Source: Pseudomonadota bacterium
GTDB taxonomy: Bacteria; Pseudomonadota; Gammaproteobacteria; UBA9214
Direction: 5' to 3'
Assembly: GCA_039714155.1 (NCBI GenBank)
Contig: JBDLJX010000002.1
Location: forward strand, 1,286 to 65,285
Length of the DNA: 64,000 bases
Shown here: piece by piece, positions 5,237 through 49,949 of the stretch
Layout: every line of letters begins with the position of its first letter
Position numbering within the stretch: the first letter of the stretch is position 1
Program-made: the position numbers and the translations under genes
Notes under the pieces: model-generated
The model's database searches: none
What the model was told of the DNA's origin: nothing
Seen by the model: the letters and a program-made list of their open reading frames with translations, nothing else

Positions 5237-6211
5237 TCAGCCGGGGAGAAAGTCAAATTTGTAGTTGACCGGTGTCGCCAGGACATCATCGGGTCCGAAG
5301 TCGATCACACGGATTCGTGTCAGCAGCTTTTGCTCCAGCTTGATGCTCTCGAGCTCACTACTGATGAGTTCGATACTGGAAATCGCGCCATTGGGCTCGA
5401 TCACGATATGAAAGACATATTTGCCCCTGACTTCCGGATCCTTGCGCAACGCGCGGTTGTAGATGGCGTAAATCGCTCCCTTGTGCTGCTCGAAAACACG
5501 ACGTATGGACTCCATGTCCCTTCCACCGGCTACCGACGAATGATGTTTACCGCCACCGCTACCGCGCGCACCGCCCGAGCCGTCGCCGGTACCACCACCG
5601 CCGGTTCCGTCGCCGGCACCGAGTGGACTCGCCACCGAAACACCGCTGCGACCGGCCAGTTGCGTACTGCTGCCATGGCTGCTAATGGCGGAGGAGTTGA
5701 TTCCTCCGCTGGTCTTGACCGCCGTTTCGCGCCCAAGCACCGAGCGCCTGATCTTTGCTGCTGCACCGGTAGTAACGTTGGTGTTCCTGGCCTGAAGCTT
5801 GGCGACATCCAGCGAACTTCGCAGCGATTGCAGCTGATTGGAAAATGCCGCCACACCCATAGATGCGACTTTCTTCCTGGCCGGTGCTTTCTTTATCTGC
5901 TTCGCCGGGGGAGCCTCTTTTTTTACAGCTTTACTGGGCTCCACAGGCTTCTCGATTTCTACCGGCTCCGGTTTCGGCGCCGGGGGCGGTGCAGGCAACT
6001 TCTGCTGCAAAATAATCTTTGCCAGTGCTGGCGGCACGATTTCGGCCTGCTCCCGCTCAATTTCCGGTAACGGGAGCCAGGGGAAGACGATGGCCAGCAA
6101 CATAAACAGAAGAAGCAGGCGCTTGAGTATTTTCCTGAAGCGCACGTCTTCCTTGCGTGTGGCCTCCCAGGGAAGAACAAAATCGTTCAATAGCATTGCT
6201 GTCGTAGTCAT
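5237..6211 (-). CDS. tonB: TonB-family energy transducer
   Basis: N-terminal TM helix, Pro/Lys-rich spacer (PAPPPAPKPEPVEIEKPVEP) and a C-terminal TonB_C-like domain (GKYVFHIVIEPNGAISSIELI). It lies directly downstream of exbB-exbD-exbD. Confidence 0.8.
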   Translation of the reverse strand: MTTTAMLLNDFVLPWEATRKEDVRFRKILKRLLLLFMLLAIVFPWLPLPEIEREQAEIVPPALAKIILQQKLPAPPPAPKPEPVEIEKPVEPSKAVKKEAPPAKQIKKAPARKKVASMGVAAFSNQLQSLRSSLDVAKLQARNTNVTTGAAAKIRRSVLGRETAVKTSGGINSSAISSHGSSTQLAGRSGVSVASPLGAGDGTGGGGTGDGSGGARGSGGGKHHSSVAGGRDMESIRRVFEQHKGAIYAIYNRALRKDPEVRGKYVFHIVIEPNGAISSIELISSELESIKLEQKLLTRIRVIDFGPDDVLATPVNYKFDFLPG

Positions 6212-6223
6212 CCGGTATAACTC

Positions 6224-6727
6224 CTATGCGCCGGCGTTGGCCACCTGGGTCACCGCCATGGACAAATCCCGGTAGTTCGATTTTGCGCAGGTCACCATGA
6301 CACGCTTGAGTATTTCATACGGGATCGTATGGTCACCCAGGATGGTGATTGCCCTGCCACTCGCCTTTTCTTCCGCGGTCAACTGTGCGCGTTTCGAGGC
6401 CAGGTAGTTGAGCTCTTTCGCAAGCCCCGGGATTACACCGTCACTTTTTATTACCTCATCCATGGTTGCGACCGGCCGGCCGTCAACGATGATGTCGGAT
6501 TCGGTCACCATGACGGTGATGGTCGACTCGGGTTTTTGCTCGGCGACGGAATCAGGGAGCTTGATGTGCTTGCTCACTTTCAGTATCTCGTTATCACCGG
6601 AGTTGATGAGCAGAAAGAACACGAGAATCGTGAATATATCCATGAGCGAAACCAGATTGAGTTTCGCAGGCCTGAGAAAGCGCCTGTGATTCTGCTGCAT
6701 GCGTTCTGCAATACTGGACCTGTTCAT
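6224..6727 (-). CDS. exbD: ExbD/TolR-family biopolymer transport protein (second copy)
   Basis: 167 aa with a single TM (LMDIFTILVFFLLI) and a periplasmic ExbD domain. It overlaps the upstream exbD by 4 nt. Confidence 0.85.
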   Translation of the reverse strand: MNRSSIAERMQQNHRRFLRPAKLNLVSLMDIFTILVFFLLINSGDNEILKVSKHIKLPDSVAEQKPESTITVMVTESDIIVDGRPVATMDEVIKSDGVIPGLAKELNYLASKRAQLTAEEKASGRAITILGDHTIPYEILKRVMVTCAKSNYRDLSMAVTQVANAGA

Positions 6728-8349: not shown

Positions 8350-9186
8350 CTAGTCCGCACCCTTGGTTGCGGCCACCGTGACGGCATCGTCGGATTCTGC
8401 CGCTGTTGTCTTGGCAGCCTTCGCCGGCGGAACATCAATAAAACTGCCATCAATGCCGGTTCTGTGTTTCACCTCGACCAGCCACTTGTGGACTTTCTCG
8501 TCTTTCTCTCCGGTAAGAAAGTAATAGGCCTCGTAATGCTTTTGCGCCGCCTCGGCCTTGTTCAGATACAGGTCATATAGAACTGCAAGATTCAGATGCG
8601 CCTCAGGGAAATCCCTCCAGACTCGCAATGCATCGAGATAGGTATGCTGGGCGTCGGAAAAATATCCCTGTCTGCGCTGCACCAGACCAAGCGCGATATA
8701 GGCATTGACGTTGTTCCTGTTTACACTGATCGCCTTTTTATAGCGCTCAATGGCAACCGTATATTTTTCCTGTTTTTCGGCTATTGCGCCCAGTTTTACC
8801 CAGGGACCGGCAAGCGAGGGATATTTTTCAGTCAGCATCCTGAATTTTGCGCTCGCTCCTTTAAGGTCTCCTGCCTGGAGCCGGTCGCTGGCTACAACGA
8901 ATATTGACTTTGCCTCACCCGGTACGGACGCATCTCCGGTGGTATACGGGTTCGGTATTGGCACGTAGGGAACTTTCTCGCCAGCAGGGTTGTAGACCTG
9001 TCGGGGCAGGGGGGCCTCAGCAGGCGAGACGATTGGAGCCTGGCGACTGGTAACGGCATCCGCTCCATCGGCCGGGCCTTTTGCCTGCGGTTTAACCGGC
9101 ACGACAGAACTGCATCCCGAAACCAGAACGGAGACCAGCATGCTTGCTGCCAGCGTGGGACGGAACTTACTTGATACCGTAGCCAT
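8350..9186 (-). CDS. TPR-repeat lipoprotein (278 aa)
   Basis: Lipobox LVSGC. C-terminal TPR repeats (YKKAISVNRNNVNAYIALGLV..., HTYLDALRVWRDFPEAHLNLAVLY). Confidence 0.7.
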   Translation of the reverse strand: MATVSSKFRPTLAASMLVSVLVSGCSSVVPVKPQAKGPADGADAVTSRQAPIVSPAEAPLPRQVYNPAGEKVPYVPIPNPYTTGDASVPGEAKSIFVVASDRLQAGDLKGASAKFRMLTEKYPSLAGPWVKLGAIAEKQEKYTVAIERYKKAISVNRNNVNAYIALGLVQRRQGYFSDAQHTYLDALRVWRDFPEAHLNLAVLYDLYLNKAEAAQKHYEAYYFLTGEKDEKVHKWLVEVKHRTGIDGSFIDVPPAKAAKTTAAESDDAVTVAATKGAD

Positions 9187-46805: not shown

Positions 46806-48884
46806 TTACGCAAGTTCTTCCTCAAAGTTGTAACCAAGCTCCTTGCTTGGTTCCTGTACAAAGTTACCCTGGATAAAGTCGATCTCGTACTGCCATAGCA
46901 GTGCCAGGTCGCTGGGGCTGTCGACATGCTCGGCGATGGACTGCCGGCCGGTTTTGCGTACCAGCGCTACGATTTCCTGTACTTTCTCCTGGTGCTCCTT
47001 CTTCTCGGCAAGGTTGCTGATCAGGGAGCCGTCAATTTTCACCATGTCGACCATGAGGTGCTTGATCAGCTGTAACTGGCCGTGGCGGCCAAAGTGTTCG
47101 ACACAGACCCGGCAGCCGATTTTCTTCATGGATTCGATAAACAGCATGGTACTCTTCAGGTCACTGACTGCCACTGATTCGGGAAATTCGAAAACAATAT
47201 GCTCGCTTTTCAGTCCGTGATCTTTCAGGGTATTGAAGACCCAGAACGAGAATTCCTTCTTTGCCAGCGAGTTGCCTGAGGTCTTGATAAAGAATGTTGC
47301 ATTCTCATCCCGCGCATGCAGTTCTGCGAGTTCCCTGACCGCGGTTTTGAACACCCAGCGATCGATTTCGTCGATCATGCCGTTTTTCTCGGCAATGGCG
47401 ATAAACTGGCCTGGCAGGATGACCTGGTCCTGTTCATCGACAATACGTAACAGCGCCTCGTAGCAAACCTCCGTGTTGTCGCCCAGGCTGACAACCGGCT
47501 GGTAGACGAGATAGAAACGTTCATCATCAATGGTCTTGCGGATGACCTGGTCCCATTCAGGTTCATGCCCGATATCCATCTGTTCATCAACGGCGATACT
47601 GTGAACATGGATCCGGTTACCGCCGGAAGAGCGTGCTACTTCACAGGCAAGGTCGGCACGTGACAGGACATTTTCGGCACTTTTTGAATGCTCGTTGACG
47701 ACACAGATGCCGATGCTGGCTGTCATGGTGACTGCGTGGCCGTCAATTTCGGTCATTTCATCATGAATTGCCTGCCTTAACTGCTCTGCAAGTTCATGCG
47801 TTGTTTCCTCGTCACTGTCGCGGTGCAATACCGTAAAGGCGCAGTCACCAAACCGGGCAATAGACGCATTCTCACCACACAGATTTTCTATCAATTTCGC
47901 GGTGTGCCTGACGAGGGTGTCGCCACCGGACATGCCAACGCCTTCGCAGGTCTTCTTGAAGTTGTCGATGAGGATATAGGTGACGGCGTGTGCCTGGTCC
48001 TTTTCGAAGCCCTTGCTGATGGCATGATTCACCGTGCGGATAAAGTCCTGGCGGTTTGCCAGCCCGGTCAGGATGTCCTGGCGACTGAGTATGTCGAGTT
48101 TCTTTTCCAGTTCCGCACTTTCCGCAGCCCGGATGATTACCTGTATACAGTTCTCGCCATCGATACTGGAATGTGAAAATTCCATTGCCGCATTGAAGCT
48201 GTTGCCATCAGGCCCCATGCCCCTGATTTCCAGTTGGTCCGTGTCGCTGTCGCCATTGGTATAGTTGCGCAGGAATTTCTTGAAGGTCATGTGGTTGCCC
48301 GGTTCAATCATGTTGAGCACGGGCATTCCCCCGATTTCATCCACATTGCCGAGGCCAAATATGCTGAGGTAGCTGTGGTTGGCGTGGATATGCATGCCTT
48401 CGTGTATGTAGGCAATGGCATCACGGGAACTTTCCATCAGGTTGTAGCTGCGTGACTCCGCTTCCTGTAATGCAGTTTCAAGTAATTCCACCTTGTGGCG
48501 CAGATCCACGGTTTCCTTGCATCCGGCAAATGCGAGTTGCAGGCCTTGTGGTGGTTCGTAGGGCGCGCATGCCATCGCACCAGCCTGTCGTGCCGAAATG
48601 ATGGTTTTTGCATCAGCATCGTGGGTGATGGCGATAACAGGTGCAGTGCAGGACTGCTGATTCAGCAGTTTTATGACGGCGGCAGGGTCGGGTAGTGAGT
48701 CGGATTCACCGCATAGCACCAGGTCGGGTGAGGCCATTTCCAGGCGTTCGGTCAGGCTATTCAGGTCTTCAGCGAGGTCGTACTGGATCAGGAAACCGGC
48801 GTTGCGCAGTGTCGTCGCATGTATGTCCGCCTCGCTGGCAGAATTTTCCACGATAACGAGCTTGAGTTTCTCCCTGTGTTTCAC
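46806..48884 (-). CDS. REC-like / PAS / degenerate GGDEF / EAL c-di-GMP phosphodiesterase
   Basis: N-terminal receiver-like domain. The GGDEF domain has the signature degenerated to RFGDCAF. The EAL domain is intact (CYEALLRIV...DEIDRWV...). Confidence 0.75.
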   Translation of the reverse strand: MKHREKLKLVIVENSASEADIHATTLRNAGFLIQYDLAEDLNSLTERLEMASPDLVLCGESDSLPDPAAVIKLLNQQSCTAPVIAITHDADAKTIISARQAGAMACAPYEPPQGLQLAFAGCKETVDLRHKVELLETALQEAESRSYNLMESSRDAIAYIHEGMHIHANHSYLSIFGLGNVDEIGGMPVLNMIEPGNHMTFKKFLRNYTNGDSDTDQLEIRGMGPDGNSFNAAMEFSHSSIDGENCIQVIIRAAESAELEKKLDILSRQDILTGLANRQDFIRTVNHAISKGFEKDQAHAVTYILIDNFKKTCEGVGMSGGDTLVRHTAKLIENLCGENASIARFGDCAFTVLHRDSDEETTHELAEQLRQAIHDEMTEIDGHAVTMTASIGICVVNEHSKSAENVLSRADLACEVARSSGGNRIHVHSIAVDEQMDIGHEPEWDQVIRKTIDDERFYLVYQPVVSLGDNTEVCYEALLRIVDEQDQVILPGQFIAIAEKNGMIDEIDRWVFKTAVRELAELHARDENATFFIKTSGNSLAKKEFSFWVFNTLKDHGLKSEHIVFEFPESVAVSDLKSTMLFIESMKKIGCRVCVEHFGRHGQLQLIKHLMVDMVKIDGSLISNLAEKKEHQEKVQEIVALVRKTGRQSIAEHVDSPSDLALLWQYEIDFIQGNFVQEPSKELGYNFEEELA

Positions 48885-49108
48885 TGCATGACCTCACATG
48901 AATATTTTCAGCAGACTGCTGGCACGGCGGCTGTGCCTGACAGCCTCGCGCCGACCCCGACTAACTGTTTTTCGGCATTTTGGACAGTTTCTTGAATGCC
49001 GGGCAGGCTCCGGAAGGTGCTTTGAAGCGGCAGGGTGTTTCCCCGTCCGGAGTTTCCTGATAGCATGCAAGTTCCTGAAATGCTGAATATTTAGAGCAAA
49101 CACAAACC

Positions 49109-49373
49109 AGTACTCCTTCAAGATGATATTGCCATGTTCAGAGCTACCCAGATACTACAAGACAAGGCGCAGCCCGCAGGGAATGGCGCGCCCTTTACAA
49201 GGGCTGCAACGCAGTATTGTAGTATCTGGGTAGCTCCCTTCGGGCGAGCCGGGAAGCGCTCGTCCGCGGTGTTGCGCCTCTTGGAAAGGGCGGGCCATTC
49301 CCTGCGAGGCGCGCCTAGCGGTCAAACGCTTCCCGGCTCGCTGAACATGGCAATATCATCTTGAAGGAGTACT
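49109..49373. repeat. 265-bp element of nested perfect inverted repeats (MITE-like or structured ncRNA)
   Basis: 33-bp perfect terminal inverted repeats AGTACTCCTTCAAGATGATATTGCCATGTTCAG (49109-49141 / 49341-49373). Inner perfect 19-bp IR at 49142-49160 / 49217-49235. Perfect 14-bp IR CGAGCCGGGAAGCG at 49245-49258 / 49327-49340. Further complementarity: CAGGGAATGG / CCATTCCCTG and two GGCGCGCC palindromes. Confidence 0.6.
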
Positions 49374-49427
49374 AACTGCCAGGTCCGGGTTGATTGGCCG
49401 GCTGTCTACCGGAACGGAGTTTTAGGA

Positions 49428-49949
49428 ATGCATGCAATTACTGTCAGACCCGAATCATCTGGTGACGCCCGTGCTATCGATGTCGTTCATATCAGCGCCT
49501 TTGGCGGCGAGGCGGAGGCGCTCCTGGTCAGTGCCTTGCGGGAGGCATCAAGTTATAACCGGGAATTGTCACTGGTGGCGGAACTGAACGGCCGTATTGT
49601 CGGCCACGTGCTGTTGACGCGCGTACCCCTGCGCAAACATGGCGAGGAAAAGAATGTACTGGCGCTCGGCCCGATGTCGGTGGTGCCGTCACAAAGTCAC
49701 CGTGGCATTGGTTCCGAACTGATCCAGGCCTGCGTCAATCTGGCAAGAGAAAAGGGCTATGGCGCGATCGTGGTGCTGGGGCACCCGGAATATTACCAGC
49801 GCTTTGGTTTTCGACCGGCAAAGGAATTACAGGTCACCTGCAACCTGCCGGCGCCCGAGGATGCGCTGACTGCAATAGAGATCGTAGAGGGGAATCTGGC
49901 GGGTGGTGGGCATGTCGAGTACCCGGAACCGTTTATTGCACTCTACTGA
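49428..49949 (+). CDS. GNAT-family N-acetyltransferase
   Basis: 173 aa. The acetyl-CoA binding motif HRGIGSELIQACVNLAREKGYGAIVV fits the GNAT fold. Confidence 0.8.
   Translation: MHAITVRPESSGDARAIDVVHISAFGGEAEALLVSALREASSYNRELSLVAELNGRIVGHVLLTRVPLRKHGEEKNVLALGPMSVVPSQSHRGIGSELIQACVNLAREKGYGAIVVLGHPEYYQRFGFRPAKELQVTCNLPAPEDALTAIEIVEGNLAGGGHVEYPEPFIALY

Follow-up and report, generated by a model that had tools for sequence, protein, structure and literature searches.

What is the strongly palindromic sequence that separates a GGDEF-EAL gene from a GNAT acetyltransferase gene in contig JBDLJX010000002.1 of a gammaproteobacterium (assembly GCA_039714155.1), and what keeps its arms complementary? 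The stretch of DNA analysed here (positions 1,286 to 65,285 of this contig, 64,000 nucleotides, hereafter the window) carries this sequence at positions 49109-49373, and the initial annotation, made from the sequence of the window, had left it undecided between a miniature inverted-repeat transposable element (MITE) and a structured non-coding RNA. We found that related copies are dispersed over more than 100 loci and are accompanied by target-site duplications, which is the outcome that had been named beforehand as favouring a MITE. The element is very probably a non-autonomous DNA transposon of this kind; the transposase that would move it in trans is most likely of the IS630/Tc1-mariner type, a family assignment that we propose from the target site and the duplication alone.

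The element and its dispersed family

The annotated coordinates and inverted repeats proved to be real. The two outer arms of 33 nt (49109-49141 and 49341-49373) are 100% complementary, and the arm sequence was found at just these two sites when the window was searched with up to three mismatches, and at none in 100 shuffles. One base of each arm, the outermost, is part of the target duplication, which leaves an element proper of 263 bp (49110-49372; 58% G+C) with perfect terminal inverted repeats (TIRs) of 32 bp. Three perfectly nested repeats had been described. Both inner pairs are indeed present, one formed by 49141-49163 with 49214-49236 (23 nt at 96% complementarity, including 20 perfect pairs in a row) and the other by 49244-49267 with 49318-49341 (24 nt at 88%, including 15 perfect pairs in a row), but they are two adjacent hairpins that lie side by side and are enclosed only by the terminal repeat, resulting in a Y shape. 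The further complementary tracts CAGGGAATGG (at 49177) and CCATTCCCTG (at 49295) and the two GGCGCGCC palindromes (at 49185 and 49308) were recovered as well; the 46-nt tracts 49165-49210 and 49271-49316, which are 83% complementary and cross both stems, are the loops of the two hairpins.

The element is non-coding, and neither of the two open reading frames (ORFs) that overlap it is a conserved gene. Both ORFs had been regarded as artefacts of the palindromes, which is true only of the 76-aa ORF at 49134-49364, the one ORF located wholly inside the element; its only look-alikes are 18 heterogeneous, miscalled ORFs of other copies, and it has no Pfam domain. The 75-aa ORF on the minus strand (48894-49121) starts in the left TIR and then runs out into the spacer.

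The sequence collections were scanned with one exact 20-mer each. The exact 20-mer of the TIR occurred in 17 stretches of species-representative genomes, nearly all of which are metagenome-assembled genomes (MAGs) of uncultured Gammaproteobacteria, and in 90 further stretches of metagenome contigs, which originate mostly from one sediment sample set, judging by the record-name series Ga03161xx. In total, more than 100 related loci (L numbers below) comprised TIR-bounded copies, deletion derivatives, solo TIRs and copies cut by contig ends. Among the 54 TIR-bounded copies (41 unique), 40 were 265-268 bp long, two 288 bp, one 313 bp, nine 132-162 bp and two 57-60 bp, with differences of 1-3 nt between subfamilies. 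The derivatives of 132-162 bp and 57-60 bp retained both TIRs, and the shortest of them contained little else. The window holds one copy, and the copy closest to it (L017, 95%) is located at an unrelated site in the opposite orientation, both orientations being found in the family. Several copies may be present in one genome, as seen in five contigs of MAG ChS5.bin.15, in three stretches on two contigs of MFD03804.bin.2.7 and in GCA_028823865.1, which holds two; moreover, near-identical copies occupy different sites (e.g., L115 and L116 of one MAG).

By blastn, the element had no match in 5,426 E. coli genomes or among plasmids and phages. Viral contigs contained neither of the two TIR sequences used for scanning (F1 and F2) nor the loop-box pattern, and a full-text literature search for the TIR sequence was likewise without a match. 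We regard the element as a member of a previously undescribed MITE family of uncultured marine-sediment Gammaproteobacteria, no earlier description having been found.

Some insertions are common to orthologous sites of genomes with visibly diverged flanks (L001 6126-6413, L005 4210-4475 and L078; L034, L051 and L059), and therefore parts of the family are old and vertically inherited. One shared insertion is positioned between the TAG stop of a 457-aa ORF and the ATG of an amidotransferase that starts with MCGIVG. In locus L004 (1-300) the palindromic repeat has given rise to a fold-back chimera during assembly: the first 71 nt of this contig are the reverse complement of the sequence that follows the element, and the rest corresponds to the L015 locus. 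Many other copies are situated at contig ends.

Target site and duplication

The flank profile of 100 unique ends read purine, C (85%), T (86%) and A (86%), followed by G (95%), T (91%) and A (97%), and the structure of the ends can be written as C-TA-[GTACTCC…GGAGTAC]-TA-G. TA was present on both sides in 24 of the 39 unique complete copies, and TT on both sides in L028 and L029. In five independent loci (L001, L005, L041, L053 and L068) the outermost base differed between the two sides (G or T versus C) with the TA intact. A 2-bp duplication of TA at CTAG fits these observations, and a 4-bp duplication of CTAG fits them less well. IS630 prefers TA within 5'-CTAG-3', and ISY100 duplicates TA and occasionally AA or TT (PMC2170065).

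CTAG was found to be the rarest tetranucleotide of the window (9 observed versus 242 expected from base composition; 0.23 of the second-order expectation), with sites at 8350, 16315, 19795, 27158, 49315, 51239, 58788, 62530 and 62712, and CCAG (1.69) and CTGG (1.52) were among the most over-represented ones. We presume that this reflects a conversion pressure from CTAG to CCAG or CTGG of the very-short-patch-repair type, which would also explain the decayed duplications. CCAG and CTGG are the commonest non-canonical junctions of the family.

Two hairpin modules kept by compensatory changes

Once the TIRs pair, nearly all bases of the element are paired on either strand, in the two hairpin modules and a central mini-hairpin. 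The folding that had been anticipated is far beyond chance, with an energy of -174.5 kcal/mol as RNA (z = -14.5 versus shuffles) and -104.7 kcal/mol as DNA (z = -16.2 versus shuffles).

The covariation alignment (A1) was built from 29 unique full copies, and its consensus was Y-shaped, 30 bp of paired TIR enclosing two hairpins of about 100 nt each. Over the 94 consensus pairs, 97.5% of the cells were paired, and 40 pairs displayed changes on both sides; none of 500 shuffles reached any of these measures, and slid controls paired at 36-43% only. The outer stems were nearly wholly replaced between subfamilies with their complementarity kept: both-side changes were detected in 18 of the 22 pairs of hairpin 1 and in 10 of the 15 pairs of hairpin 2. 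The strong structural selection suggested earlier is borne out in the form of a fold that is kept by compensatory changes across subfamilies.

The module is about 97 nt long and consists of an outer stem, CAAGGCGC, a 7-bp inner stem, GCAGGGAATGGC…CCTTTNCAAG, the inner-stem partner, GCAAC and the outer-stem partner. Each element carries two copies of it, which are normally convergent. A covariance model of the module (CM R1) gave 88-90 bits for the correct strand, as opposed to about 21 bits for its complement, and when it was run over the window and 116 loci (~790 kb), the module was detected solely inside such elements. The 3-nt loop of the central mini-hairpin varies or flips among subfamilies (TTC, TCC, GAA, GCA, AAA), and conservation is higher in the loop box and the fold than in the TIRs. 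When G·T mismatches were compared with A·C mismatches, hairpin 1 favoured one strand and hairpin 2 the other, and therefore no single RNA strand is singled out.

Singleton mutations in the main subfamily were distributed evenly over TIRs, stems and loops, and 13 out of 17 broke pairs; variants shared within this subfamily were often compensated (40 out of 90 cells), and the same change occurred in both TIRs in two lineages (L026/L098 and L020). Thus, the fold is a property of spreading lineages, and inserted copies decay, which suggests that the fold serves the propagation of the element.

Members of different subfamilies (L001 6335-6360, L078 and L006; L117 at about 1705-1735 and L119; L089) carry extra segments of 23, about 30 and 46 nt, all at the same point of module 2, where the loop box is followed by the 3' stem. 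In the window this point (49313-49317) holds an internal CTAG, and it is possibly a secondary insertion hot spot.

One interior with several types of terminal repeats

The same interior was found with at least six TIR types. The types other than that of the window are all 32 nt long, begin with GT, end with CAG and sit at (C)TA(G): GTGTGGTGTAACG… in L034 and L092, GTACTCTATCCAGG… in L114, GTACCCTTTCCAG… in L115 and L116, GTACTCCGTCAAGG… in L117 (GCACTCCG… in L118 and L119) and GTGGTCCAACCAGG… in L113. The similarity of the TIRs and that of the interior were discordant: compared with the window copy, L007 was 97% similar in the TIR and 65% in the interior, L114 62% and 83%, and L034 41% and 78%. 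Single hairpins may be flipped, both modules pointing forward in L092 and both being reversed in L119. In addition, first-family copies were inserted at a TA beside second-family ends in L012, L013 and L016.

The copy in L113 (3007-3317), which has the fifth TIR type and a 46-nt internal insertion, is located in the spacer between lexA and a cassette of sulA-like, imuB (IMS) and dnaE2-type polymerase genes.

Insertion next to stop and start codons

The first base of the element is G and the last is C, which restores CTAG at both junctions, so that the TAG stop codon of an upstream gene survives the insertion. At 31 of 91 unique ends, an ORF that reads toward the element and has 100 codons or more terminates at the junction TAG, compared with 76 of 554 control CTAG directions (p = 2e-8); in L116, for example, a ferredoxin-like (Fer4) gene (source annotation) ends on the first G of the element. 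Furthermore, each TIR ends in an outward-facing AAGGAG. A start codon that lies 5-15 nt past the GGAG and opens a long ORF was detected at 20 of 106 ends versus 36 of 573 controls (p = 1e-4), and ATG alone at 14 of 106 ends versus 16 of 573 controls. The N-termini at such starts included MCGIVG, MPEYEIRQMQ, MKFIDEA, MKFSIYRFNP and MGFKCGIVG, which we take to be those of purF/glmS-like, rimI, obg, sdhB and ychF genes. The window copy, which is located 224 bp and 55 bp from the flanking start codons, uses neither the stop nor the ribosome-binding feature.

A solo TIR was present at orthologous sites in diverged lineages (L022 482, L085 349 and L102 1090), where it supplies the start codon and the first residues (ATGATATTGCTG…, read as MILLATSALHI…) of an ABC-type ATPase ORF. 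In most of the 267-bp copies (e.g., L007 1398-1664), in which the element and its duplication correspond to 89 codons, one frame is stop-free throughout. In-frame insertion within genes was rejected as a general feature, as long open frames on both sides were seen in L073 only.

Proposed mechanism of spread and points against it

In the mechanism that we propose, an IS630/Tc1-mariner-type transposase supplied in trans would bind the 32-bp TIRs and cut the element out, and the element would insert at TA, preferably within RCTAGY, with the TA being duplicated. The G/C termini would rebuild CTAG and spare the stop codon where the target TAG ends a gene, and the outward AAGGAG would act as a ribosome-binding site for the next gene, which would allow the element to occupy tight gene junctions in either orientation. 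In our preferred reading, the compact fold would take the harm out of read-through transcription, since no long stretch of untranslated RNA would be left unstructured and polarity would hence be low; alternatively, fold-back single strands could have a role in amplification. The loop box may be a protein-binding site.

A bolder version of this idea, which we put forward tentatively, is that selection maintains the ~97-nt module as a functional cassette, which is shared by MITEs with at least six sets of TIRs and whose fold is kept by compensation in each lineage that spreads. Combined with the G/C termini and the ribosome-binding sites that face outward, the cassette might provide a "polarity-proof" way of inserting into operon junctions whichever way the element points: the untranslated insert would be concealed within structure, and translation would start anew downstream; or else the fold might be the substrate for a fold-back copy-out amplification.

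Several points weigh against transposition by an IS630-type enzyme supplied in trans. The search for a partner covered the ORFs next to solo TIRs and, in all loci and the window, inverted repeats (15 bp or longer) with a spacing of 700-3000 bp; neither in the window nor in the 119 loci (~790 kb), nor beside the solo TIRs, did it reveal a transposase or an autonomous element whose ends match. About a third of the copies, including that of the window (CA…TA), have an imperfect duplication, there was no exact pair of filled and empty sites among the fetched loci, and the precise empty site of the window is not reconstructible because the spacer of the relatives has diverged too far. The controls of both junction tests include intragenic CTAG, where insertions could not survive, and therefore part of the enrichment of stops and starts is due to survivorship. 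Finally, template-switch correction of quasi-palindromes could keep the arms complementary without selection. Such correction might contribute to the complementarity of the arms, but would not account for a loop box that is more conserved than the stems.

The inverted-repeat search turned up a single insertion sequence (IS), at 5374-6558 of locus L002, which was rejected as the partner: it is unrelated, 1185 bp long and bounded by a perfect TIR of 17 bp (GGAACCTCTGATTAATT), with CTAC as a direct repeat on either side. A short TIR match in the same locus was also discarded as the end of a transposase element, as it is followed by a terminator-like hairpin and no gene.

Alternative explanations

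It could be argued that the module came first, i.e., that the ~97-nt hairpin is a regulatory RNA or a protein-binding site which rides on mobile TIRs or was captured by them, and which is kept for the benefit of the host or of the element. The strong covariation, the occurrence of one interior with at least six TIR types and the persistence of the loop box and the fold beyond that of the TIRs (as in L034 and L114) are consistent with this possibility, which we nevertheless consider rather unlikely. CM R1 detected no stand-alone module outside TIR-bounded elements in the ~790 kb searched, and the flipped modules of L092 and L119 turn the loop into its complement within one transcript. The G·T pairs favour no strand, copies decay after insertion, and mini-elements consisting of the TIRs only exist. 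In addition, the scan of the region for promoters and terminators gave one weak promoter-like site, not above shuffles, and zero terminators. The comparison with Rfam, which had been suggested as a check of RNA identity, returned nothing above hairpin noise: for 48800-49700, Rfam 15 (E <= 10) gave generic hairpin (microRNA-precursor) matches only, at 17-31 bits versus gathering values of 70-124. A stand-alone RNA gene, the other half of the original proposal, is not supported, because there is no Rfam match, the position is unconserved, both orientations occur and no strand is favoured by G·T pairs.

Under a second alternative the element would be a MITE derived from an IS5-family element, like MITEPsy1, with a 4-bp duplication of CTAG (YTAR) and TACTCC…GGAGTA as the element proper. 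The junction consensus CTAG…CTAG is equally compatible with duplications of 4 bp and of 2 bp, and some IS5 subgroups make 2-4-bp duplications. MITEPsy1 itself duplicates CTAG or YTAA (PMC3189936). Against this, the left 4-mer starts with G or T and the right one with C, with the TA intact, in the five loci listed above; the G beside the TA is conserved at 95%, like the element, versus 85-86% for the C, T and A; and all six TIR types begin with GT and end with AC, whatever else changes. Since, moreover, the termini are unlike IS5-type ends (GGAAGG…/GAG…), we judge this origin improbable.

We find it still harder to explain the family by mobility of single-stranded DNA through its hairpins, in the manner of IS200/IS605, REP/RAYT or integron attC systems, with the TIRs being simply the outermost stem. 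This would agree with the covariation of all stems, including the variable inner part of the TIRs, with the same terminal mutation in both TIRs of L026/L098 and of L020, and with the flipping of hairpins. The IS200/IS605, REP-RAYT and attC systems, however, make neither 32-bp TIRs nor a target duplication, whereas here TA is duplicated at a palindromic target and the 57-60-bp derivatives keep the TIRs only, and no HUH or integrase gene was seen nearby, so that this explanation is very improbable.

A unique chance palindrome or an assembly artefact can be dismissed despite the chimera at L004, as more than 100 independent contigs, drawn from many samples, carry the same element between flanks that are ordinary and differ from one another, and the chance expectation of the TIR is zero.

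The insertion in the window and its surroundings

As to the locus itself, the window copy is situated in the spacer between the divergent GGDEF-EAL and GNAT genes (Table 1). The GNAT protein has a 100% match annotated as an N-acetyltransferase and many orthologues at 79-87% identity. In five syntenic loci the GGDEF-EAL/GNAT spacer was 215-298 bp long and bore no trace of the element, compared with 543 bp in the window, and the three longest of the syntenic loci showed the gene order GGDEF-EAL, GNAT, FimW, radical-SAM-like and EF-P. The window copy is an insertion that is unshared with these relatives and in which one base of the duplication has mutated.

Table 1. Features of the element and of its flanks in the window.
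Feature	Position	Strand	Remarks
GGDEF-EAL gene	46806..48884	-	From the ORF list; Pfam GGDEF and EAL on syntenic orthologues; start 224 bp left of the element
Conserved intergenic motif TTTCCTGATAGCATGCAAGTTCCTGAAA	49053..49080		Host sequence outside the element; in all five element-free syntenic loci
Left copy of the target duplication	49108..49109		CA here, a decayed TA; junction CCAG, not CTAG
Left 32-bp TIR, GTACTCCTTCAAGATGATATTGCCATGTTCAG	49110..49141	+	Perfect complement of 49341-49372; same TIR carried by more than 100 loci
Left-end outward AAGGAG (Shine-Dalgarno-like)	49113..49118	-	Sequence motif; no gene uses it in the window copy
Hairpin module 1 (stem B:B', 49141-49163/49214-49236)	49141..49236	+	CM R1 87.7 bits, E = 1e-16
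Loop box C of module 1	49165-49210	+	Conserved; own inner stems of 7 bp and 5 bp
Central mini-hairpin CCCTTCGGG linking both modules	49236..49244		CCC/GGG stem kept
Hairpin module 2 (stem D:D', 49244-49267/49318-49341)	49244..49341	-	CM R1 90.5 bits on minus versus 20.8 on plus
Loop box C' of module 2	49271-49316	-	Same module type as module 1, reversed orientation
Right 32-bp TIR	49341..49372	-	Perfect complement of the left TIR
Right-end outward AAGGAG	49364..49369	+	Unused; GNAT start 55 nt further on, with its own GGAG
Right copy of the target duplication (TA)	49373..49374		Junction CTAA
GNAT acetyltransferase gene	49428..49949	+	Start codon 55 bp right of the element

A conserved motif of the spacer, GGGT(A/G)TTT(T/C)C…TTTCCTG(A/T/C)TAGCATGCAAGT..(C/A)TGAAA, was recognised at 49033-49080 and in L108, L109, L111 and L112, and is probably a shared regulatory site. 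It lies to the left of the insertion, and the MITE has moved it 265 bp further from the GNAT gene. The direct repeat D1 (49029-49070 and 49396-49437) was examined as a possible long insertion duplication and rejected, as its left part is the conserved host motif and its right part the start region of the GNAT gene.

Comparison with known elements

Bacterial MITEs, as reviewed by Delihas, are characterised by TIRs, a terminal TA, target duplication and transcripts with stable stem-loops, the RUP element being an example that is linked to IS630 (PMC2229807). RUP, which is mobilised by IS630-Spn1, resembles the window element in that it is non-coding and intergenic, has TIRs, a TA duplication and a stable stem-loop, and is thought to be moved in trans by an IS630-family transposase (PMC2229807). 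However, it is 107 bp long and A+T-rich with short TIRs, and its partner IS has been identified, whereas the window element, for which the search yielded no partner, measures 263 bp at 58% G+C and combines 32-bp TIRs with two internal hairpin modules. The Correia (NEMIS) elements of Neisseria are likewise bounded by TIRs with TA termini, occur as size variants that differ in an internal segment, give rise to a transcript with a long hairpin and contain internal signals for protein (IHF) binding and for expression (PMC2229807). They are unrelated in sequence, 107-155 bp long and form a single stem-loop; the present family is Y-shaped with two equivalent modules, prefers CTAG and offers a putative outward ribosome-binding site rather than a promoter.

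The ERIC/IRU (RU-1) elements are also intergenic imperfect palindromes with a TA duplication, and they are co-transcribed with their neighbours, the fold of the RNA affecting the mRNA (PMC2229807). They differ in length (127 bp), in their 7-bp TIRs and in an effect that depends on orientation, the window element being pseudo-symmetric. Membership of the window element in ERIC/IRU was rejected, as it had no blastn match in the E. coli genomes searched.

IS630 and ISY100 themselves share with the family the insertion at TA with a 2-bp duplication, the preference for CTAG (IS630) and the occasional AA/TT (ISY100) (PMC2170065), but are 1-1.2 kb long and encode a transposase, whereas the window element encodes nothing. 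MITEPsy1 of Pseudomonas syringae, which is derived from IS5, is similarly small, TIR-bounded and inserted at CTAG (PMC3189936), but has a 4-bp duplication, a length of 100 bp and IS5-type ends. The family described here is set apart from all of these by its 263-bp size, its 58% G+C, its long perfect TIRs, the two-module interior that is found across TIR types and its junctions with stop codons and putative ribosome-binding sites.

Implications

The family adds one more to the known MITEs, in sediment Gammaproteobacteria that are poorly known. Its recognition is of use in annotation, as the copies break MAG assemblies, yield spurious small ORFs and have produced at least one fold-back chimera. 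It also offers an unusually clean data set on the spread of MITEs, with stems that drift yet remain paired, loop boxes that outlast the TIRs, discordant histories of TIRs and interior, and termini that spare the stop codon of one neighbour and may provide the other with a ribosome-binding site. Should these features turn out to be functional, they would illustrate how a mobile element can limit the burden on hosts with compact bacterial genomes, and they could be borrowed as a design for neutral insertions.

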